Sequence record: OL631257.1
Direction: 5' to 3' (one strand)
Length of the DNA stretch: 64,000 bases
DNA from: Escherichia phage ECCR664
Part shown: in pieces, positions 128 to 26,795 of the stretch
How positions within the stretch are numbered: position 1 is the first letter of the stretch
Layout of the letters: every line of letters starts with the position of its first letter
The notes under the pieces: model-generated
What the model was told of the DNA's origin: nothing
The model's input: the letters and a program-made list of their open reading frames with translations, nothing else
Database searches by the model: none
Made by a program: the position numbers and the translations under genes

Positions 128-445
128 TCAATCTTCTATGATATCAGAGTCGTATCCTAATGAAATCAAGGACTTTTTAAACTCTGCAATATTCTTTTGT
201 TTCTTATCATTTAAAAATATGACAGGATAACGAATATTAAGTGAAGTGAATCCTGCACGTTTAGCAAGAGATACGATTAAAGGACGGTCATATTCAATCT
301 TACCATTATTAGTGAGGACTTTATAAAATGTATAAGGAGCATTGAGCTCCTTTAAAAGTTTTGTAACAGTATAACATCCTGGACAACGTCCAACTTCTTC
401 AGGGATGCCATAGATTTCAATCTTGTTCTTTAAGTTCGAGTTTTG
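128..445 (-). CDS. nrdH: NrdH-like glutaredoxin/redoxin (CPGC motif); start codon uncertain, possible frameshift-fusion with upstream ORF
   Basis: ORF 128..580 C-terminal ~100 aa 'KIEIYGIPEEVGRCPGCY...' is redoxin-like and sits where T4 has nrdH, downstream of nrdG; no in-frame ATG at the expected start. Confidence 0.5.
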   Translation of the reverse strand, partial: QNSNLKNKIEIYGIPEEVGRCPGCYTVTKLLKELNAPYTFYKVLTNNGKIEYDRPLIVSLAKRAGFTSLNIRYPVIFLNDKKQKNIAEFKKSLISLGYDSDIIED

Positions 446-752
446 TTCCACGAGAAATAATTCCTTGGTAAGCCCAATAAGGAGGATTAACAGAATCCTC
501 ACCAGAGTTTTCTTCAGGAAAATAAACCTGGATAACAAATCCAGATGCATCAAATGTAAAATAAACTGTAGGCAGTTCACCTAACAATTCGGCACGAGCA
601 TTAATTTCTTCAAGATCTCGTTCACGTCCAGCCCAAAAACTAGGATTTAGACTACATTCATAGAAATAATAGTCATTACCGAACATATCAAAACCCTTCC
701 AACTCTCTACCACGTACCGCTCAAAACTAATCATAATTAAGCCTTTTATCAA
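417..752 (-). CDS. hypothetical protein (overlaps nrdH-like ORF in another frame)
   Basis: 111-aa ORF, minus strand, in the early-gene block. Confidence 0.4.
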   Translation of the reverse strand: MIKGLIMISFERYVVESWKGFDMFGNDYYFYECSLNPSFWAGRERDLEEINARAELLGELPTVYFTFDASGFVIQVYFPEENSGEDSVNPPYWAYQGIISRGTKLELKEQD

Positions 753-958
753 GAACAGAATTCAGTTTGTTAGTAATTTTATCCAGACGCTCATTGAACT
801 CACTAGAAGATAAGCCCTTTTCTGGAGAAATTAAACTAATCACGAAAAATACACCAGTAAAAGGAATAAGAAAAATAGCTCCAACTGCCATAAACAAAAG
901 AACGTTACAGTTGTAAGAAAATCAGCTAAACCTTTACGAAATTTATACATATTTACCC

Positions 959-1530
959 TTAATTAATTAACCAAGCATTGATAAGCAAACCATATTGCGA
1001 ATAAAATTCTGGACCAAAACGAAAAATCATATCATTTATAGTATCCATAATGTAGTTCAATTTAATCATGTTTCCACACCCCATCGGTATTTGACCAAAG
1101 TCGCTGATTATCTGATCCTCGCCACAGCTTTTTGGTCGGAAGATTTTCTCATACTTCCCATCAATAATAACATCAACATATTTAAGCATTTCTAGTTGTT
1201 TAATATCTTCAAACTTGTATCCTGTCCACAACCAAATGCTTTTATTGGGATAAAGATTTTTGCTGTTTGAACAATGCAATGAATAACATCTCGGTTGTCA
1301 GGATAGAGAGGGTCTCCTCCGGTTATAGTCAATCCTTCTATATAATCATTATTCAAGCATTCAATTAATTGTTCTAGTGTTTCACCGGTGAATGGAATAC
1401 CATTTCTAGCGTTCCATGTTGATTTATTATAACACCCTTCGCATTTATGCAAACAACCTGTAACGAAAAGAACGACCCTGCAACCAGGGCCATTCACAAA
1501 ATCGCAAGGATAAAATCTATCATAATTCAT
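959..1530 (-). CDS. nrdG: anaerobic ribonucleotide reductase activating protein NrdG (radical SAM), frameshifted
   Basis: N-terminus 'MNYDRFYPCDFVNGPGCRVVLFVTGCLHKCEGC' has the radical-SAM CxxxCxxC motif; C-terminal 'WLWTGYKFEDIKQLEMLKYVDVIIDGKYEK' continues in another frame (ORFs 1192..1530 and 959..1279). Confidence 0.85.
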
Positions 1531-3343
1531 TGGTGTTTAACCCTATGCATGATTTCTTTATTTTTACCGAGATTAAATCCGCGTTCGTTCGGATTTCCAA
1601 GATAACCGCATGTTCTTCTTATAGTGTTCATCTTTTTAGGATCAGTTTCTCCACAAACTGAACAAACAAATCCGTTTTCAGTAGGAGTCATTTCATGAGT
1701 ACTTCCGCATGTAAAACATTTATCCACTGGCATATTAACACCAAAATAATCTAAATGTTGTGCAGCATAATCCCAGACAGCCTCAAGACCCTTTAAGTTA
1801 TTTTTCATATCAGGAAGTTCAACATAAGAAATGTGACCACCTGTCGCAATGAAATGATATGGCGCTTCACGAGAAATCTTTTCAAACGGAGTAATATTTT
1901 CTTCTACTGAAACGTGGAAACTATTAGTGTACCAGCCTTTATCGGTAACATCTTTTACGCTTCCATATTTTTCTGTATCAAGTTTACAGAAGCGATAACA
2001 AAGGTTTTCAGCAGGAGTAGAATATAAACTAAAAGCAAATCCAGTTCTTTCAGTCCACTGTTTAAGATGAGCATTCATTTTAGTTAAAATTTCTTGCCCA
2101 ATATCACGACCAACAAGAATATTCAATTCATGAATACCAATGTATCCTAAAGACACTGAACTTCTACCGTTTTTAAATAACTCAATTATATCGTCGTCAG
2201 GTTTAAGACGAACCCCGAATGCACCTTCTTGGTAAAGAATAGGAGCAACAGTCGCTTTAACTCCTTTTAAGGAACTAATTCTACACATCAAAGCTTCAAA
2301 ACATAAATCCATTCGTTCATTGAACAATTCGATAAATTTCTGTTCATTGAATTGTGTTCCAATATAAGAATCTAATGCGATACGAGGAAGATTCAGTGTT
2401 ACAACACCGAGATTATTACGTCCATCAAGAATTTCATTACCGGTTGAATCTTTCCATACGCTCAAGAAACTACGACAACCCATTGGAGAAACAGGAATAG
2501 ATGAGCCAGTGATAGCTTTATTGTTCTTAGCTGAAATAATATCAGGATACATTCTTTTGCTTGCACACTCTAGAGCGAGTTGCTTAATATCATAGTTCGG
2601 ATCATCTTTATAAAGATTAACACCTTCTTCAACAAACATAACAAGTTTAGGAAAAATAGGAGTTATCCCATCACGTCCAAGACCTTTAATGCGGTTTTTA
2701 AGAATTGCCTTCTGAATCATTCGTTCAGTCCAATCAGTTCCTGTTCCAAATGTTATAGTAACAAAAGGAGTTTGTCCGTTTGAACTAAAAAGAGTATTTA
2801 CTTCATATTCATAAGCTTGGAATGCATCGTATACGTCTTTTTCTGTTTTAGATTGAGCATAATTCAACGCATCAGCGATTTGCCATTTTCTGCATCTTCA
2901 ACATGTTTAGCGTATGTACGTTTAACATAAGGAGAAAGAACTTTATCGACATTTGCAAATGTAGTTCCGCCATACTGATGTGAAGCAACTTGTGCAGTAA
3001 TTTGTGCCATAATTGCAGTAGCAACACCAATCGATTTAGGCGTTTCGATTTGAGCATTGCCTAATTTAAATCCATTCTCAAGCATCCCCTTTAAATCGAC
3101 TAAACAGCAATTAGTAAACGGAAGAGCAGGAGAATAATCAATATCATGCATGTGGATAATTCCACTTTCATGCGCATTCATAATAAAAGACGGGACCATA
3201 TTTTTGGCAATGTGCTTAGACACAATACCAGCCATAAGGTCCCGTTGAGTTGGAAAAACACGAGAATCTTTATTAGCATTCTCGTTCAAAAGATCTTTAT
3301 TAGTTTTATAAATTAATCCTTCAATTTCTTTTTCAATTTTCAT
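1527..3343 (-). CDS. nrdD: anaerobic ribonucleoside-triphosphate reductase NrdD (glycyl radical enzyme), intron-less, one frameshift near 2864-2890
   Basis: ORFs 2864..3343 and 1527..2867 together match T4 NrdD end to end; glycyl-radical motif 'RRTCGYLG' and C-terminal Zn ribbon present; the break falls at a T4 run around 2886-2889. Confidence 0.95.
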
Positions 3344-3344
3344 T

Positions 3345-3812
3345 TTAAACTCTTTCTAAGCTGCTTTTGAATGAAGCTATTAATTGTGTTTTAGTATCAG
3401 ATTCATTATATTCAAATCCTCTTTGAAGCATCTCAGTCATCATTTCCTCTTTACCTAGTCTTGAGAACTCTTTAGTTTTGTCTGGAACAAAATTAGGATG
3501 GATATTATTATCAGAATAATCTTGTTTCAAATAAGCAAGAAGAGCTTCAAGCCATTCGAGGTAATCAACGTTTTGACCTTTAAGACCAGAACGGTTGAAC
3601 TTATGCTTCATTTGACCTTCTGCTGCATTGCACAGGTTACATAGTAAACCACGAACCTTACCAGCTTTTGGCCCGTTTAATTCATGGTCGTGGTCAAGAT
3701 GGTTACCTTGAACATCAGGGTCTAATTCACGGTGGCAAATAGGACACTTACCGTTCTGTGCATCATAAAATTTTTGTTTTTCTTCTTTATATTTTGCGCC
3801 TGATAATAACAT
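3345..3812 (-). CDS. 49: endonuclease VII (Holliday junction resolvase) gp49
   Basis: 155 aa 'MLLSGAKYKEEKQKFYDAQNGKC...HLDHDHELNGPKAGKVRGLLCNLCN' is near-identical to T4 gp49. Confidence 0.95.
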   Translation of the reverse strand: MLLSGAKYKEEKQKFYDAQNGKCPICHRELDPDVQGNHLDHDHELNGPKAGKVRGLLCNLCNAAEGQMKHKFNRSGLKGQNVDYLEWLEALLAYLKQDYSDNNIHPNFVPDKTKEFSRLGKEEMMTEMLQRGFEYNESDTKTQLIASFKSSLERV

Positions 3813-3841
3813 GATAAACCCTTACCTTAAATAGATAAGGG

Positions 3842-3849
3842 TATTTATA
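3842..3849 (-). promoter_or_regulatory. T4-type late promoter (TATAAATA on minus strand) upstream of gene 49
   Basis: Plus strand 'tatttata' is the reverse complement of TATAAATA, about 30 nt upstream of the gene 49 start. Confidence 0.4.
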
Positions 3850-3851
3850 AT

Positions 3852-3944
3852 TTAGTAAACGTTATAAAAGTCACGATGAAAACGTTTATATTGACGAATC
3901 ATTTTCTTAGTAGGACGTGTTACTGAAATAATTGAAGTCCTCAT
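3852..3944 (-). CDS. small basic protein (30 aa), copy 1 of a duplicated ORF
   Basis: 'MRTSIISVTRPTKKMIRQYKRFHRDFYNVY'; paralogous to the peptide encoded at 4455..4590 ('...TVRPTKRQLRKAKRSHRNFYREY'). Confidence 0.3.
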   Translation of the reverse strand: MRTSIISVTRPTKKMIRQYKRFHRDFYNVY

Positions 3945-4039
3945 ATTTGGATTGTTTGGGGCCCCAATCATAATAAATTTCCAGGATTTTTGCCCATTTT
4001 TCTTTCACCATAAAATAATTCAGTTTTCATAATAAACCT

Positions 4040-4453
4040 TTAACTTAAACGTCTTTCTAAATATTCAATGTATTCCGCTGCGGCTTGCATCAGATTACCT
4101 TCATAACCGTCATTATTTTCTTGGGCGGCTAATTTAGCTAAAGCATAAGAAATACGTTCACCTTCGAATTTGCCAAGTTCACTGTCACAAACTACTTGGT
4201 CAATTTCTTCGAGTTCATCTATTGAATGGGATTCCCAGAAGCACCAAAGACAAGTATCACGGTCATAGATGCAAAGTTTCTCACCTGTGTTCAACATCAC
4301 TTCGATAATGCCATGGTCGCCATAACCATCTTCGGTAGTAGTACCAATTACCTTGATGATTGTTCCTTTCTTTAATTCAGGAAACTTGACTTGTAGTTCT
4401 TCATCTTCTTTAACAATCTTGAACCATTTACCGCGAGTTTCAGAAATATTCAT
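4040..4453 (-). CDS. hypothetical protein (about 138 aa, start at 'MNISETRGKWFK')
   Basis: ORF 4040..4570; internal ATG at 4451-4453 is the likely start; sits in the T4 '49/pin' neighbourhood. Confidence 0.5.
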   Translation of the reverse strand: MNISETRGKWFKIVKEDEELQVKFPELKKGTIIKVIGTTTEDGYGDHGIIEVMLNTGEKLCIYDRDTCLWCFWESHSIDELEEIDQVVCDSELGKFEGERISYALAKLAAQENNDGYEGNLMQAAAEYIEYLERRLS

Positions 4454-4454
4454 A

Positions 4455-4590
4455 TCAATATTCTCTATAAAAGTTACGATGAGAACGTTTAGCTTTGCGA
4501 AGCTGACGTTTAGTAGGACGAACTGTAAATGGTTGCCCAGAGAAAAATTCGGATCGGTTTTAATAAGCAAATACCAATCGTGCTTGCCAT
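4455..4590 (-). CDS. small basic protein, copy 2 of duplicated ORF (frameshift suspected)
   Basis: Frame encodes '...GQPFTVRPTKRQLRKAKRSHRNFYREY*'; upstream ATG 'MASTIGICLLKPIRIF' is in another frame across a T-run. Confidence 0.25.
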
Positions 4591-4611
4591 TTTTAATAAA
4601 CGGTACAATAA

Positions 4612-5108
4612 TTTAACTTGCATAATAATCTCTTCCCATCTCCATATCAATTAATTCATTTATTGAAGGTTCATCATAACATGTTTCTTCGTCGTTGTAA
4701 ACTGTTTCGACGTCTGGCTCGACAGTCTCCCATCGAGCAGAATACCACGGTTTAACCCCGGAGTTTATTGAGCTCTTCATAATCAATCCAGGATTCTAGC
4801 CCTGACGGCAGGTCACATTCAATGTTCCACAGAAGCTCTTCAATGGCTTGCAGGCGATTATATTCTTCAACGGTAATGGTAACCATTGGTGCAACCGGTT
4901 CTGCCTTTTTAACCATCATATCGTTCATCAGGACGTAAAGGTCATCACGAACGACAGTGTCGTTCCAACCCCATGATTTGGCTTCGTAAGCTAATGATGA
5001 AGGGAGCACATTTAAAACTTCAATAATAGTTGGAGCATCAGGACCAAGTTCATTGGCACAAACTTCGTATACATCTTGGAAATCTTTAAGATTTAATGAA
5101 TATGTCAT
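4612..5108 (-). CDS. hypothetical protein (possible 3' frameshift; ORF 4752..5108 plus continuation)
   Basis: 118-aa ORF 4752..5108; a further coding frame continues to about 4612. Confidence 0.45.
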
Positions 5109-5367
5109 TTAAAATATTCTCGTAGTTGGTCAAAGCCACCGATCGAAGTTCCATCAGGAGCAAACACTTGAGGCATAGTCAATCCGACTTGTGATTCACG
5201 TCCAAGCTTAACAAGAAGCTCAGCAATTTTCTCATCATCGAACACACCTTTTCTGGCATAACATTAATGAATTCAAATGGCTGTTTCTTAACAGTCAGCA
5301 GTCGTTTCGCATTGTCGCAATAAATGCATTTATGAATAGTAGAGTCGTACCCGTACACTTTAAACAT
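5105..5367 (-). CDS. nrdC: thioredoxin/glutaredoxin NrdC, frameshifted
   Basis: 'MFKVYGYDSTIHKCIYCDNAKRLLTVKKQPFEFINVMPEK' matches T4 NrdC; the C-terminal 'GVFDDEKIAELL...GGFDQLREYFK' is in the -1 frame after a T4 run at 5249-5252. Confidence 0.9.
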
Positions 5368-5773
5368 TATTTTTCCTTTCATCGATTAAATATGCAACGC
5401 CAAATACAATACATGTAATAAAACCTGTGATACAGATAGAAACCAACAACACTGTACCAAAGAACCAAATCAAGTTATCTTTAGTAGTTTGTTTGATATC
5501 CATCTCACGAATTTCTATAGCTATCGTATCACCTTTATTCAGAAGCGTATAAAACGACGGTGATACATGCCTGTCAAAAACTCGACCTTGTTCATCTTTA
5601 TAGACTGCAATAAATTCTAATTTAGAATATTTTCCTGTAGATTGACCTGAAATTAATTCCACTACCTCCACAGGAATTACTTTAGTTTCCATGTAAGTAT
5701 TCTGGCTGTTCCAAATGAACGGAATAATGGCAAAAACTAAAGCTGCGATAAAACAACGAAGGCTATATCTCAT
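5360..5773 (-). CDS. predicted membrane protein (2 TM)
   Basis: 137-aa ORF with hydrophobic segments 'CFIAALVFAIIPFIW' and 'IWFFGTVLLVSICITGFITCIVFGVAYLI'. Confidence 0.5.
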   Translation of the reverse strand: MRYSLRCFIAALVFAIIPFIWNSQNTYMETKVIPVEVVELISGQSTGKYSKLEFIAVYKDEQGRVFDRHVSPSFYTLLNKGDTIAIEIREMDIKQTTKDNLIWFFGTVLLVSICITGFITCIVFGVAYLIDERKNNV

Positions 5774-6078
5774 TATAATGTTCTCTCAAATTTGTGGAAG
5801 CATTTACGGCATTTCAATTTCAAGTTATCAGTGGTCCAGTTAACCAGTTGGACTTGGATAGTTCCACATTCTGGACATGGATGTTTTGCTGCCGATTTGG
5901 CAGCATTTTCACGTCGTTCAACCATTTTCATTATTTCGTTCCATGCCGGAGGAACGAACTCTTCTTCACCGTGGATTTTATCTCGCTGAACAAATTCAAT
6001 CTTTGAACTATCGTCAATAAACTTAACCAAGCCATGATTAGTGCTCATATCAATATCCTCTAGAAGACGTAGTTTCAT
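5773..6078 (-). CDS. zinc-ribbon protein
   Basis: 101 aa with 'CPECG...CRKC' Cys4 pattern. Confidence 0.5.
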   Translation of the reverse strand: MKLRLLEDIDMSTNHGLVKFIDDSSKIEFVQRDKIHGEEEFVPPAWNEIMKMVERRENAAKSAAKHPCPECGTIQVQLVNWTTDNLKLKCRKCFHKFERTL

Positions 6079-7027
6079 TATAACACCTCAATGGCATTTC
6101 GTAAACCATCCGCTTTCGCATTCAGAACTTTTAACGATTTAGTTTGTTCTGCAATCTGGGCTTCGACTTCTTTCAGACGAGATTTGAGGTACTCACGTTC
6201 TTCTCTTAAATTATCAACTTTTTCTACTTTAGGTTCTTTAATAGGCTTAAGTTTATACATATTAGGGTTCTTCAGTTTAATTTGAATTCGAGAACTGAAT
6301 AACATTGAACCGTTATCTTCAGTTTCGCTGAACATTTCAACAACATCCATAGTCTGTAACATCATACGAAGTTTATAAGACAGCGAACGAACGGTTTTGT
6401 TGTGCTTATTAATTTCTTCAGCTTTCATGGTACCGAGATTACGTGAGTAGTAATAAGGAACCTGGATATCAATTGATAATGATGCGTTACCATTACCGGT
6501 TGGTTTGAATACTGCAGTAACCCAATCTTTAACATGAACTTTATTTGTACGACCATCACCGCCAGTGAATAATTTACGAGAATGTTTAAAAAGCATATTC
6601 ACTTGGTTATTGAATTCACAAGCAAATTTATCAGCAAATTTAGTTTCAGGAATTGTAGATAACCAATCAGCTAAATGAGTCTTTTAACATCGTTAATAAT
6701 AGTAAATTCAACCAAATCGGTTTTAGATGTCACAGATTTAATAAAGCTCGGTTTCATAAAGTTTTTAATGTTATCGCGAGCTACAGTAGAAGATAATAAA
6801 CGAGAACGTTTGAACCATTGAAGCAGCGTCCCTAATGAATGAGAATATGCATTTTGAGTATCTTTACAGATATGATTTTCTTGGCCGGTATATGTACCAA
6901 AATCGCGAAGAATACCACTTACTACATCTCGGTGTGGAACATCAAATCCTAATGAACCAGAAGCACGTTGGGCATGAACATTAGCGATAAGACCTGCAAA
7001 ATAATCAATGTAATGTGAACGTGTCAT
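6078..7027 (-). CDS. hypothetical protein (about 316 aa, frameshift about 6600-6690), coiled-coil C-terminus
   Basis: ORFs 6671..7027 and 6078..6602 are adjacent on the minus strand with coding continuity across frames. Confidence 0.45.
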
Positions 7028-22562: not shown

Positions 22563-23035
22563 TCAGTTATAAAACGTTCAACTTCATTATTCTTGGCCTT
22601 TATCTTGTCTTTACGTTCCTGTAAACTACTTTTAACAAGATTAATAATGATGGCGGCGGTACCGCCGCCAATGATGCCACCAACAACACTTATGATACTA
22701 GATGCTAATAAGATAGCAATAATATCAACAAAACCGAAAGAACTAACCTTAGTACTAAAAAACCATACCGACGGTACAAATATAATCCATCCTGTTATCC
22801 ATTGGCACTTATTGAAAAACTTTTCAAGCTCAGCTTGAGTTGTTCGTATTACTTCATCGATAGGTTGATATCCATTAATGTATCTGTTCACGATAATACC
22901 TGCTGGCTGGTCGATTTTAAATTCTTGACAAATACGTTTCACTAAGTAGGATGGACATCCTGTCCAATCCACTGAATAGTACGAAATACCTTCATTGTCA
23001 TCGTCAATATTAGACCAATATGTTTTGTTAATCAT
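22544..23035 (-). CDS. membrane protein (Gly-zipper TM segment)
   Basis: 'ILLASSIISVVGGIIGGGTAAIIINLV' hydrophobic segment. Confidence 0.45.
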   Translation of the reverse strand: MINKTYWSNIDDDNEGISYYSVDWTGCPSYLVKRICQEFKIDQPAGIIVNRYINGYQPIDEVIRTTQAELEKFFNKCQWITGWIIFVPSVWFFSTKVSSFGFVDIIAILLASSIISVVGGIIGGGTAAIIINLVKSSLQERKDKIKAKNNEVERFITECRNLR

Positions 23036-23720
23036 TACCAGCCTTCCATAGGGAATTCCAGATAAACTTGGGCATTGACACGAATTTCATTGGTAATCTT
23101 TTTAACTCGGTCTGTATTACGAGATACACGTCCGAACCAACGCCATCCATTACTAATTGCACGAGAACCAGTGTGCCATGTTTGCCAATCGAACTGAAGA
23201 AGAGTACGGTCTGGAGCTTCCCATTTCTCTAGTTCACCTTTTTCAATTTTTCGAGGACTTCTTTGTGCCATTGGCGATAGATAAGTTCGCCATCAGGAAT
23301 CTGGCTGAACTCTGCAGTTCCTGTTGCAAAATGAGTAGGACACACATCAGCGTTAACAAGGCCAAGAATATGTTCAGACAAATAGCGAGGATTGTCATAG
23401 TCGGGTTGTCCTGCAGTAATAAAGTGTTGACCAACCGGAATATCCGGGCGTGGTACATCGTCATGGTGATAACCTGGGATAGCAGGGTACCAACCAGGCA
23501 TCAGCATGTGGACTCGTGAATCAAATACAACCTGGTCGGTGTTCCAATCATCTGGCAAGTTCATAATGAAGCTGCGAGTAATAGGACCGCCGTTATTATA
23601 AGCAAATTCTAAACTACAGTTGAAGAACATAGGCTCGTTCTTGATTTTATCATTAGAAATACCGCCGGCAAAACCACCTACTGCACGAGCTTGACTATTA
23701 AACACTTTAGAACTATTCAT
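23035..23720 (-). CDS. 2OG-Fe(II) oxygenase-like protein, frameshifted about 23229-23271
   Basis: 'YHHDD' (HxD) and a distal 'WHTG...RWFGRVS' (His ... RxS) pattern typical of 2-oxoglutarate oxygenases, across ORFs 23229..23720 and 23035..23271. Confidence 0.4.
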
Positions 23721-23767
23721 ATTATTTTCCTCGACATTCTTTAATGAAATTTTCTAGATTGGTAGAT

Positions 23768-24027
23768 TCAATAGCTTTTTACGAGCTTCTGAGTGTTCTT
23801 CTTCTGACAATTTACGTTTATAATTGACCCAGACATTATGGTCGAAACCAGTCGTGGCATATAATAACAATGCTCCAACGAATAGCAAAAACGGCGATAA
23901 GAATACAAAACCAGGAACACCATCCATATCGTAAGCCTTTTGTAATACTGCAACAGAAAGAGTTACGTAAAAGGTGATGCAAGTATTGTTAAAAGACCAA
24001 TTCGGTTGGTTTCTGTTAATTTCATAA
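23768..24027 (-). CDS. small membrane protein (frameshift suspected)
   Basis: ORF 23768..23953 with a hydrophobic N-terminus. Confidence 0.3.
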
Positions 24028-24052
24028 TATTCTCCTCATGTTTTAATAGGAC

Positions 24053-24083
24053 TACTATAATATAGCCCTATCAGTTTGTACAC
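24053..24083 (-). promoter_or_regulatory. T4-type early promoter
   Basis: Minus strand GTGTAC, 17 nt, TATAGT in the 'aataggactactataatatagccctatc' element. Confidence 0.45.
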
Positions 24084-24302
24084 TTATTTTGACATTTCTT
24101 CGATGTCACGACGATACCCATCACGAACTTCACGAAGAGCTTCAAGGCCACACATAGGCTCGATACCAGTAATGTGAACTTGATTAATCTGATACTCTAC
24201 ATCTTCTAACTGAGCGAAAACATAACGACGTTCTGCTGCACAACCAGGTTTAGCTTTACCGAAACGTTTATTCAAAGTAGTCATTTTTATATCTCCATTC
24301 AC
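24084..24302 (-). CDS. hypothetical protein (72 aa)
   Basis: ORF. Confidence 0.4.
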   Translation of the reverse strand: MNGDIKMTTLNKRFGKAKPGCAAERRYVFAQLEDVEYQINQVHITGIEPMCGLEALREVRDGYRRDIEEMSK

Positions 24303-24318
24303 TCATTTGTTTTGATAG

Positions 24319-24352
24319 GTCTATAGTATCAACAACTACAGACCTTGTAAAC
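24319..24352 (-). promoter_or_regulatory. T4-type early promoter
   Basis: Minus strand GTTTAC, 17 nt, ATACTA/TACTAT. Confidence 0.45.
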
Positions 24353-24364
24353 AGTTTTGTGAAA

Positions 24365-24901
24365 TTATTTGAAAGGTTTTACCATATGGAAATTTTGTTT
24401 GAAACGTTTTACGTAATCGTCATGTCCTAAGCTTTGGTACATACTTACTACTTTGCTGTAGTTTTCCCAGGCGTATTCACGGAACCAACCGGAGGTGATG
24501 CTTGTGCAGACTTTTTCTAATGCCATCATGAAACTGGCTTCAGGGTTAATTTCAAAGTTATTAGGAATCTGAGAACGTTCTAATGCTAGTACACATGATT
24601 CTTCGTATACACCGGCCAATTTGACCATTTCTGGTAATGATTCGAACTTCTCGCGTGAGGTCATGACTTCAGAACCATCTTTCATGTAAAACGTATAAGC
24701 AGGGCGGTCTGTTAGTGCAATGGCTTCGTGAATAGTATCATGGTCATATGTATAGATGTCATCTTTAAAGAATGCGCTTTTAGAAGTGTCAAGAACCGGG
24801 TGAGCATAGTTCAAGGTTTCTTTCTGGCGTTTCAGCATAATTTCAGTAAGTTCATCGTTCAGTGTAACACCTTTACCACGAAGATACTGAATATGGTTCA
24901 T
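24365..24901 (-). CDS. hypothetical protein (178 aa)
   Basis: ORF; 5 nt downstream of 24907..25320 on the same strand. Confidence 0.45.
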   Translation of the reverse strand: MNHIQYLRGKGVTLNDELTEIMLKRQKETLNYAHPVLDTSKSAFFKDDIYTYDHDTIHEAIALTDRPAYTFYMKDGSEVMTSREKFESLPEMVKLAGVYEESCVLALERSQIPNNFEINPEASFMMALEKVCTSITSGWFREYAWENYSKVVSMYQSLGHDDYVKRFKQNFHMVKPFK

Positions 24902-24906
24902 AGTCT

Positions 24907-25320
24907 TTAAAAGAATGGATTATTTTTCTTGAAACGATGGGACATCTTAATTGCAAGACACATCTCAGGAGTTGCCCAGTAAAACCCGTTCAAACGGTCT
25001 TTAGTCAAATTTTTCTTGGCATATTTTAAAAGGTCATAAGAAGACGTGAAATCTTCAGGAGTGAGTTCACCGACTAATTCACGGACATTAGTGATTGCCG
25101 GAACAATATATGCTTCAAAATGAGTTTCGCGTCCATTATGGAAGCATTTGAAAACTTGGACATCAGGGTTATCTTGGTGGACATATACACCCATCATTTG
25201 ATTTTTGAATGCATTCCAAGAACCTTGGTCTGCAATAAAGTCCCAGTCACTATTTTTGATAGCGTTAGAATCAATAAGTCCGTGATAGTGAAGTGCACGA
25301 GAACCAATAACTAACATCAT
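24907..25320 (-). CDS. hypothetical protein (137 aa) with weak NTase-like N-terminus 'VIGSRALHYHG...SDWDF'
   Basis: ORF; the motif match is weak. Confidence 0.4.
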   Translation of the reverse strand: MMLVIGSRALHYHGLIDSNAIKNSDWDFIADQGSWNAFKNQMMGVYVHQDNPDVQVFKCFHNGRETHFEAYIVPAITNVRELVGELTPEDFTSSYDLLKYAKKNLTKDRLNGFYWATPEMCLAIKMSHRFKKNNPFF

Positions 25321-25343
25321 AATATTTTCCTCGGATTAATTAA

Positions 25344-25605
25344 CTTAAATTTCGCGACATGCGATATTATATTCATCCCAGAGGTCGTCATGTGAAGCCT
25401 CTACCAATGGAACGATTGTACCGTTTATGTCTTCATTATAAGGACAAATTGTACAGTGCGCATCTTCGAATCGGATGCCTTTGTGTTCAGATTTTTATAA
25501 CGCATATCGAATATCTTTGCAAACTTTTCACGAGTAATGGTTTTAGCAACCACTTTAGTTCCGATACTTTCGTAATAAATCATTGTGGACTCCATTTAAT
25601 TTGAT
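25344..25605 (-). CDS. small Cys-containing hypothetical protein, frameshifted
   Basis: 'MESTMIYYESIGTKVVAKTITREKFAKIFDMRYKNLNTK' then '...FEDAHCTICPYNEDINGTIVPLVEASHDDLWDEYNIACREI' in another frame. Confidence 0.35.
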
Positions 25606-25611
25606 AGGACT

Positions 25612-25641
25612 ACTATAACATAGCCCTATCTTGTTGTAAAC
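25612..25641 (-). promoter_or_regulatory. T4-type early promoter
   Basis: Minus strand GTTTAC, 17-18 nt, TATAGT. Confidence 0.5.
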
Positions 25642-25645
25642 TGTT

Positions 25646-25843
25646 TTAGCAAGAATAACTAGATGATACCCAGCCTTGAACAGTAATACTATTATTTGAT
25701 ACCGAGATTGCGTTCTGGAGATTCAGACCTGCGTTATCTTCAATCCATAATGTAACTTCTTCGCGTTCTTCTGTTGCAATTTGGAACAGGTTTTCCAGGG
25801 CAGCTACTGCCGTACGTACAGCACAATCTAATTCACGAGACAT
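25646..25843 (-). CDS. small protein, tandem paralog family member 3 (C-terminal 'GWVSSSYSC')
   Basis: 65 aa; shares its C-terminal motif with 25853..26124 and 26134..26439. Confidence 0.5.
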   Translation of the reverse strand: MSRELDCAVRTAVAALENLFQIATEEREEVTLWIEDNAGLNLQNAISVSNNSITVQGWVSSSYSC

Positions 25844-25852
25844 ATGATTTCC

Positions 25853-26124
25853 TTAGCAAGTGTGAGAAGATGCAACCCAACCACCAGTTTCGAGGCTCAG
25901 GTTATAGTCGTATTGGTAAACGTCGGCCCATTCAGCATAGCCGTTTTTGTACAACGTTCAAGATCGGCTTTAAGATGTCCTGGCGAATGATAGGTTCCAC
26001 CCATACCATAAGCTGGATACAAGTCGAATGTTGTGTTTTGTTTATCAGCAATTTCTTTGGCAGCCTCAATAGCTGCATAGATTTTTGCTACGGCTTCAGC
26101 CAGTTCGGTTTGTTCTTTAGACAT
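25853..26124 (-). CDS. small protein, tandem paralog family member 2 (C-terminal 'GGWVASSHTC'), frameshifted
   Basis: ORF 25897..26124 'MSKEQTELAEAVAKIYAAIEAAKEIADKQ...GGTYHSPG' plus a shifted C-terminus. Confidence 0.45.
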
Positions 26125-26133
26125 AATGATTCC

Positions 26134-26439
26134 TTAGCACAACGCAGAAGACGAAACCCAAGCACCTTCAGTAATAACGTAACCATTACCTTCACGCTTA
26201 ACATCGCCACCATTATTTTCAATTTCATTTTTCATCCATTGGGATACGATTTCACCCTTAGGATAATAAGTACGACCGCTACCATAATCACCTACAGAAA
26301 ATGATACGGCATATTGGTCTGCGATCTTTGTTGCTTCTTCTTCGATACGTTCAGCTTGATTCAGAAGTTTATAAATTGCATCTGAAGCGGATTTGGCATC
26401 ATTAAACTCTGGTACTTTAATTTCAATAATCTTACTCAT
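26134..26439 (-). CDS. small protein, tandem paralog family member 1 (C-terminal 'GAWVSSSALC')
   Basis: 101 aa 'MSKIIEIKVPEFNDAKSASDAIYKLLNQAERIEEEATKIADQ...GRTYYPKG'. Confidence 0.5.
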   Translation of the reverse strand: MSKIIEIKVPEFNDAKSASDAIYKLLNQAERIEEEATKIADQYAVSFSVGDYGSGRTYYPKGEIVSQWMKNEIENNGGDVKREGNGYVITEGAWVSSSALC

Positions 26440-26795
26440 TTTCTACATTCCTTAATAAAGTTTTCTATTGTTTCATTTTCACGTCTAGCTAGGAGTTCAT
26501 TATAACTAATCATTTGAGAAGCGTAAACCTTTTTATTTTTCTTGTTATGGTTTATAAAATCGTAGTAAAAATAGACTACAGTACAAAAGGATGCGATGGA
26601 TGCAAAGGCTTGGGTGTACCGTAAGTCCTGCCATTGGTCTGTGAATCCACCGGTGTTCCCTATAAATCCTAACACAACCCCGTCAATAAGAAATCCAACT
26701 AATCCAAAGGCAAATCCCATGCCAATACTCATAATAAAAATTAGAATGTTCTCACCAAGAGACGGCCATACGGTTAAGAGTTGAGGCTTTTGCAT
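26436..26795 (-). CDS. membrane protein
   Basis: 'ILIFIMSIGMGFAFGLVGFLIDGVVLGFIG' hydrophobic segment. Confidence 0.5.
   Translation of the reverse strand: MQKPQLLTVWPSLGENILIFIMSIGMGFAFGLVGFLIDGVVLGFIGNTGGFTDQWQDLRYTQAFASIASFCTVVYFYYDFINHNKKNKKVYASQMISYNELLARRENETIENFIKECRK

Follow-up and report, generated by a model that had tools for sequence, protein, structure and literature searches.

The window analysed here is a 64,000-nt stretch of Escherichia phage ECCR664 (OL631257.1). Between e.3 and a homologue of RB69ORF135c, it carries an array of three small minus-strand genes, hereafter A, B, and C, each found at the position given by the first-pass annotation. The gene for a larger enzyme begins approximately 0.3 kb downstream of C. 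The features of the locus, all on the minus strand, are as follows:

26134..26439, minus strand: paralogue A, 101 aa; RB69ORF139c plus RB69ORF138c; phrog_899
26125..26136, minus strand: A/B junction, TAA within TAAGGA (Shine-Dalgarno), 9-nt spacer, ATG of B
25853..26124, minus strand: paralogue B, 90 aa when intact; RB69ORF137c; phrog_899; broken near 25944
25844..25855, minus strand: B/C junction, TAA within TAAGGA, 9-nt spacer, ATG of C
25646..25843, minus strand: paralogue C, 65 aa; RB69ORF136c; phrog_4882
25603..25640, minus strand: promoter-like site TTTACA-17-TATAGT, with TG, directly after C
25345..25595, minus strand: RB69ORF135c homologue, 83 aa when intact, 56 aa here (undercall at 25492)
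24365..25320, minus strand: enzyme RB69ORF134c, DUF7277 plus DUF7275, 318 aa when intact

The start codon of A overlaps the stop codon of e.3 (ATGA). Within the array, the junctions read TAA-GGAATCATT-ATG and TAA-GGAAATCAT-ATG, with 9 nt from stop to start, and the proposal that each stop codon doubles as part of the ribosome-binding site of the next gene is borne out at both of them. The same 9-nt spacing is found in phage VR7, and the junction sequences support translational coupling along the array. Paralogue A consists of an N-terminal helix, a DYGSGRTYYP hairpin, and the tail GAWVSSSALC-COOH. Paralogue B carries AYGMGGTYH and ends in GGWVASSHTC. Paralogue C, a shortened family member, has no YGxGG loop and ends in QGWVSSSYSC. 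An AF2 model of A has a pLDDT of 91.5, with low confidence at the final residue only, and places the W-V-S-S-S segment as a β-strand inside the fold, leaving no free tail.

The window belongs to a T-even phage of the RB69 type (Mosigvirus); over the 1.5 kb around the array, it is 97–98% identical to FL18, PhAPEC2, RB69, and upwards of 130 further records. Compared with JS09 in an alignment over about 48 kb, the window has about 90 single-base deletions (for example at 2886, 9441, 24909, 25492, 25944, 36396, 43382, and 48547). Nearly all of these lie in A/T homopolymers of at least 5 nt, with the window always the shorter sequence, and they also strike the essential baseplate genes gp5, gp6, and gp7. 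The deletions represent systematic homopolymer undercalling, and as a result many ORFs in the window are artificially broken.

Gene B is one of these. In the window it is divided between two ORFs of 75 and 33 aa in different frames, whereas RB69, FL18, and JS09 all have an unbroken gene of 90 aa. Near position 25944, the window has five A residues where those three phages have six, and a three-way DNA alignment with RB69 and FL18 identified this A6-to-A5 change as the sole cause of the split. Because this undercall is one of about 90 across the window and the relatives are intact, the frameshift is a sequencing artefact, which rules out B as a pseudogene or a site of programmed frameshifting. 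Both genes next downstream are broken by the same type of error, at 25492 and 24909; the latter divides the enzyme gene into segments at 24907-25320 and 24365-24901. A break of another kind is seen in the RB69 reference (AY303349, 3737-4043 of the stretch examined), where an extra T divides A into RB69ORF138c and ORF139c. Paralogue A is a single 101-aa gene in all other Mosigvirus records examined, and the extra T probably stems from an early sequencing error or from a mutation of that strain.

The first-pass annotation had proposed that the three genes are paralogues sharing a C-terminal motif. When we ran the regular expression W.[SAP]SS..C$ over 1725 stop-to-stop segments of the window, it matched A, B, and C only, against a chance expectation of 8.6e-4. 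BLASTP gave E-values of 2e-4 for A-B, 2e-4 for B-C, and 0.012 for A-C. Using subfamily profiles built from related loci, hhalign aligned A with B at 98.9% probability (E 3e-17, 71 columns) and B with C over the full length at 90.7% (E 1e-6, 61 columns), and aligned A with C in the tail only (66.5%); comparing a fourth subfamily, D, with A or B gave 96–98%. Both A (1.8e-22) and B (3.5e-19) match phrog_899, and C matches phrog_4882 (1.6e-36). Our own family HMM detects A (6e-23), the two fragments of B (2e-18 and 1e-4), and C (2e-8). The common tail is thus present in all three genes with statistical support, and the G(R/G)TY(Y/H) motif and 'MSK...A..IA' helix ascribed to the first two are present in A and B. 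Judged by these comparisons, A, B, and C are true paralogues.

A profile built from A, B, C, and a few homologues was then searched against 1.84 billion proteins, yielding at least 611 clusters with E ≤1e-3 (clusters being represented at 50% identity). Family members are nearly all 65–140 aa long, and the match extends to the last residue. The terminal residue is exactly Cys in 135 of 145 representatives, and these Cys-ending proteins have W at -7 (135/135), S at -4 (135/135), S at -3 (132/135), and S, A, or P at -5. Within the 145-representative set, 90 have no other Cys, the median net charge is -8, marking an acidic family, and 28 carry extra W-x-S-S repeats. The family is restricted to phages, and besides the tail its members have an amphipathic helix at the N-terminus and a small β-sheet. 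Members of one subfamily, E, have a second, internal W-x-x-S-S-C tail motif fused to the YG loop (..DWLNSSC-YGEEAGRTF..) in addition to a terminal ..W-x-P/S-S-S-C, as in VR7 (4027-4251) and 44RR2.8t (3287-3505; both in the stretches examined). This arrangement suggests proximity of the C-terminal Cys to the YG loop, either in space or between subunits.

Searches for a known relative of the small proteins gave no informative sequence match in PDB, NCBIfam, PADLOC, or Pfam and no fold relative in PDB or BFVD. Pfam matches of A to Peptidase_S78_2 (E 0.0036) and E217_Gp32 (E 0.009) were rejected as noise, since they fall under the curated cut-offs and are absent for B and C. The top profile match, P0142 (2289 aa, in 17 stretches), is a cadherin-like repeat adhesin, and we consider it spurious because the match covers its 'DDGSGNTYQ' repeat only. 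We found no paper on the small proteins or on the DUF7277/DUF7275 enzyme.

The array had also been described as fast-diversifying, a description that the substitution data contradict. Among FL18, JS09, and RB69, pN/pS is 0.0–0.14 for A, B, and C, compared with 0.05–0.07 for the adjacent enzyme and 0.13–0.51 for e.3 and e.4. Orthologues of the small genes are likewise recognizable across genera: those of A are 60–63% identical in the JS98/VR7 group and 35–45% in Aeromonas phages, and those of C are 54–67% identical in other genera. We distinguish five subfamilies (A–E), each with orthologues in several genera. On these comparisons, A, B, and C are under purifying selection, and the duplications that produced the array are old, with the paralogues held under constraint. 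Variation in copy number among T4-like genomes, which the first-pass annotation had suggested looking for, does exist, at 1–6 copies per locus. The array is A-B-C in Mosigvirus; A, B-like, C, D, and E in JS98/VR7-like phages; A-B-E-D-C in Klebsiella and Enterobacter phages; and A-E in Aeromonas phages.

In T4 (NC_000866, 67652-68319), e.2 and e.3 abut, and the whole block of approximately 3.4 kb from ORF132c to ORF139c (about 23000-26440 of the window) is missing. This block comprises the small-protein array, ORF135c, the enzyme, ORF133c, and ORF132c, and it is an indel of a hyperplastic region. The promoter-like site directly after C is σ70-like and overlaps an 11-bp hairpin (dG -16 kcal/mol, z -4.1). 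T4-type phages have similar promoter/stem-loop cassettes, termed PeSL, whose promoter consensus is TTTACW-N17-TAYWAT (PMC4122927) and which have been proposed to drive modular shuffling in these phages (PMC2839356, PMC4122927). The gene that separates array and enzyme, the RB69ORF135c homologue, is outside the small-protein family.

The downstream enzyme has the Pol-β nucleotidyltransferase fold with motifs I–III. Its catalytic residues (IGS...DWDF...E69) lie in DUF7277, the Pol-β nucleotidyltransferase domain. In fold comparisons, MenT and ANT proteins, not MNT, score highest, with Lnu also among the best. We therefore assign it as a Pol-β nucleotidyltransferase of the MenT/AbiEii/ANT type with intact catalytic motifs. 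The C-terminal domain, DUF7275, is helical, approximately 170 aa long, and very highly conserved, with the motifs YDHDSIHE, GVYEExCVLALER, and KVCTSITSGWFRE; it gave no convincing structural match. Against Pfam (E≤1), the enzyme matched DUF7275 and DUF7277 only, with no DUF1814/AbiEii; there was no match in PADLOC, and a profile search against PDB sequences did not return MenT.

Array and enzyme are linked well beyond this phage, a connection that the first-pass annotation did not mention. We sampled 80 IMG/VR viral loci centred on the enzyme and, separately, 25 loci seeded on a small gene. Small genes are present in 69 of the 80 enzyme-centred loci by HMM (E<1e-3) and in 74–75 by the tail regular expression. 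They number 1–6 per locus, all on the strand of the enzyme, and nearly all copies lie within 2.5 kb upstream of it. Conversely, the enzyme is downstream in 23 of the 25 loci seeded on a small gene, and in the other two the contig ends first. Clustering of the neighbouring ORFs across the 80 loci revealed no other co-conserved family near the enzyme.

The array is followed by the RB69ORF134c homologue in VR7, Klebsiella phage VAC36, and Aeromonas phage 44RR2.8t, and the module adjoins e.3 in RB69 and nrdD in 44RR2.8t. It is also present, with four small-gene copies, in the non-T4-like Pseudomonas phage phiK7A1, as well as in Acinetobacter phages and phage-like MAG contigs. From bacterial genomes, we obtained 5 enzyme matches in 185,579 species, all on phage-like MAG contigs; the module is essentially absent from bacterial genomes. 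The link between array and enzyme is therefore near-obligate across phage groups and genomic contexts. The exceptions run in one direction. An intact enzyme without nearby small genes occurs in a few Gram-negative phages and in the Gram-positive phage homologues, and in a few phage contigs no recognizable small gene lies within 6 kb upstream of an enzyme whose catalytic motifs are present; small genes lacking the enzyme were never seen among the loci examined. The enzyme can stand alone and the small proteins apparently cannot, as would be expected if the small proteins are accessory to it.

Distant DUF7275 homologues offer a view of the enzyme in other surroundings. Those of Streptomyces phage TunaTartare (2162-3636) and DSS3_PM1 (265-3891; both in the stretches examined) adjoin an RNA ligase gene, the DSS3_PM1 locus also having a metallophosphoesterase, and that of Gordonia phage Aphelion (2809-5918 of the stretch examined) lies beside a tRNA gene cluster. 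None of the three loci has small Cys-tailed genes, and enzyme homologues of this kind retain all catalytic and C-terminal-domain motifs. The gene neighbourhoods hint at a role in RNA-end repair or modification. Because these distant homologues adjoin RNA ligase genes or a tRNA cluster, we infer that the substrate is RNA, and their placement suggests RNA 3′ ends as the true target of the enzyme.

From the linkage data, the small proteins most likely serve the enzyme as partners, whether regulators or substrates, and are probably not rapidly evolving host-range genes. Strict orientation, adjacency, and one-way dependence all argue for an accessory partner. We tentatively favour, at somewhat less than an even chance, a form of this reading in which they are dedicated regulatory or pseudo-substrate subunits. 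The N-terminal amphipathic helix of a small protein would bind the enzyme, with the acidic body and the Ser-Ser...Cys-COOH tail filling the substrate groove or active site, and the small proteins would thereby time, restrain, or redirect the enzyme during infection, its core activity probably being nucleotide addition to RNA (tRNA) 3′ ends. Both the physical interaction and the docking of the tail are inferred. Against the regulator model, up to six paralogous regulators per enzyme would be unusual for toxin-antitoxin pairs, a need to restrain a toxin in a lytic phage is not evident, and the repeated W-x-S-S motifs in 28 of the 145 representatives look more like modification sites than a docking element.

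The closest described arrangement is MenA1-MenT1, in which a small partner gene likewise lies upstream of a nucleotidyltransferase gene. MenA1 is a 7.4-kDa antitoxin, encoded upstream of MenT1, that binds the toxin through an N-terminal helix (PMC11375011) and induces autophosphorylation of a motif-I Thr or Ser of MenT1 (PMC11375011, PMC10435456). Because no antitoxin residue enters the active site in MenAT1 (PMC11375011), docking of the tail would have no direct precedent there. The phage module differs from MenAT/AbiE in several further respects: the enzyme lacks a Pfam DUF1814/AbiEii match and has the extra DUF7275 domain of approximately 170 aa, the small proteins end in a Cys-terminated tail and occur in arrays of 1–6, and the module occurs almost exclusively in large lytic phages rather than in the chromosomes of bacteria. 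In sequence and in fold, the small proteins resemble neither MenA1 nor AbiEi nor any other known antitoxin, and the upstream partner is not homologous to MenA, AbiEi, or COG5340. Since the sequence hallmarks of MenAT/AbiE are lacking, we describe the module as working like such a system rather than as a member of it. In that family, the nucleotidyltransferase extends tRNA 3′ ends and thereby inhibits growth, an effect that its partner neutralizes.

A second possibility, which we hold to be on the doubtful side, is that the small proteins are substrates of the enzyme, with the invariant tail Ser (or Cys) nucleotidylated to make or switch effectors. The Ser-Ser pair and terminal Cys are highly conserved, and only the last residue of the AF2 model is of low confidence. 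Having 1–6 paralogues per enzyme suits one enzyme acting on many substrates, and this reading also draws on the W-x-S-S repeats in 28 of 145 members and on the internal W-x-x-S-S-C of subfamily E; the multiple paralogues and the repeats fit this reading better than the regulator reading. ANT and Lnu, both among the best fold matches, nucleotidylate hydroxyl groups, and the HEPN/MNT systems supply a precedent for a nucleotidyltransferase that modifies a neighbouring protein (PMC7641770). On the other hand, motif-complete enzymes found beside RNA ligase genes and without small genes suggest an RNA substrate, and the W-V-S-S-S segment is a β-strand within the AF2 model, not a free tail. A broader version, in which a MenT-like enzyme nucleotidylates, or primes on, the tails of small acidic effectors as an undescribed phage modification system, seems to us unlikely.

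The HEPN/MNT comparison has limits of its own. In HepT-MntA, a Pol-β nucleotidyltransferase oligo-AMPylates the protein encoded alongside it (PMC7641770), and the phage module shares this two-part layout of a Pol-β nucleotidyltransferase and a neighbouring protein. Unlike in that system, the phage enzyme is far larger than a minimal MNT. Moreover, A, B, and C contain no Rx4-6H motif, A has no His, and no HEPN fold match was obtained. With ANT(2'') and LnuA, the enzyme shares no sequence similarity and no antibiotic link, and it differs from them in its additional conserved domain and putative protein partners. RlaP, described as a jumbo-phage Pol-β nucleotidyltransferase that accompanies RNA ligases (PMC7824862), is similar in that distant homologues of the phage enzyme adjoin RNA ligase genes or a tRNA cluster; the T4-like enzyme differs in adjoining the small-protein array instead.

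It is also rather improbable, in our estimation, that the small proteins act autonomously in host takeover or anti-defence (for example as nucleic-acid mimics or as inhibitors of host nucleotidyltransferase-type defence proteins), their linkage to the enzyme reflecting mere co-regulation or co-inheritance. This comes near to the first-pass annotation, which took such arrays as typical of host-range or anti-defence loci. Consistent with such a role, they are small and strongly acidic and are encoded in an early-gene accessory block that is missing from T4 (e.2/e.3), and in this phage the promoter-like element parts C from the enzyme operon. However, the linkage holds across distant phages while all other neighbours change, the small genes keep a strict orientation, sharing the enzyme's strand and almost always preceding it, they match no PADLOC or anti-defence family, and they are not diversifying.

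The tail also invites comparison with modified peptides. The AviCys rings of epidermin-type lanthipeptides are formed at the C-terminus with S-x-x-C spacing. The S(-3)-x-x-C(0)-COOH spacing of the small proteins equals that of these rings, with S(-3) in 132 of 135, so that activation of the Ser by the nucleotidyltransferase could in principle lead to a thioether or AviCys-type ring of the kind found in RiPPs. Because no decarboxylase (LanD/HFCD) or dehydratase is co-conserved across the 80 loci, because the prediction is of folded domains of 65–110 aa with no leader/core layout, and because Pfam gave no RiPP-related match, we judge this very improbable. Finally, although the middle ORF is broken in the window, the idea that the motif is a chance or non-coding artefact, with B decaying or subject to programmed frameshifting, is refuted by the chance expectation of 8.6e-4, the 611 clusters, pN/pS ≤0.14, the unbroken B of relatives, and the approximately 90 undercalls of the same kind across the window, and is given practically no weight.

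The array together with its MenT-like nucleotidyltransferase is an undescribed but widespread phage module. From the RB69 genome (2003) onwards, its genes have been annotated as unrelated 'hypothetical proteins'; they can now be read as one conserved two-part module. Its small proteins make up at least 611 clusters and its enzymes more than 2,200, and it is distributed among T4-like, rV5-like, and further large lytic phages that infect many hosts. MenT/AbiEii proteins are toxins that modify tRNA, and the anti-phage defence system to which they belong is among the most abundant; a MenT-like module carried by phages could be a host-translation takeover device. It could also be a protein-controlled RNA-repair or counter-defence enzyme, or a new protein-nucleotidylation system; if the tails are nucleotidylated, large lytic phages would gain nucleotide-tagged proteins for conflict with their hosts. 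The terminal Cys and Ser-Ser are immediate handles for mutagenesis and mass spectrometry, and phages of the RB69 group are genetically tractable and present in phage therapy collections.

We note that existing labels near these genes can mislead. The 'sulfurtransferase' label under a phage F27 match belongs to an e.4 homologue, outside the array. In Klebsiella phage VAC36, the labels 'tail completion protein' and 'major capsid protein' are supported by none of our family searches, nor are 'Ig-like domain-containing protein' and 'prohead assembly scaffold protein'; the genes so labelled (3803-6381 of the stretch examined) are homologues of the small proteins and of the enzyme.
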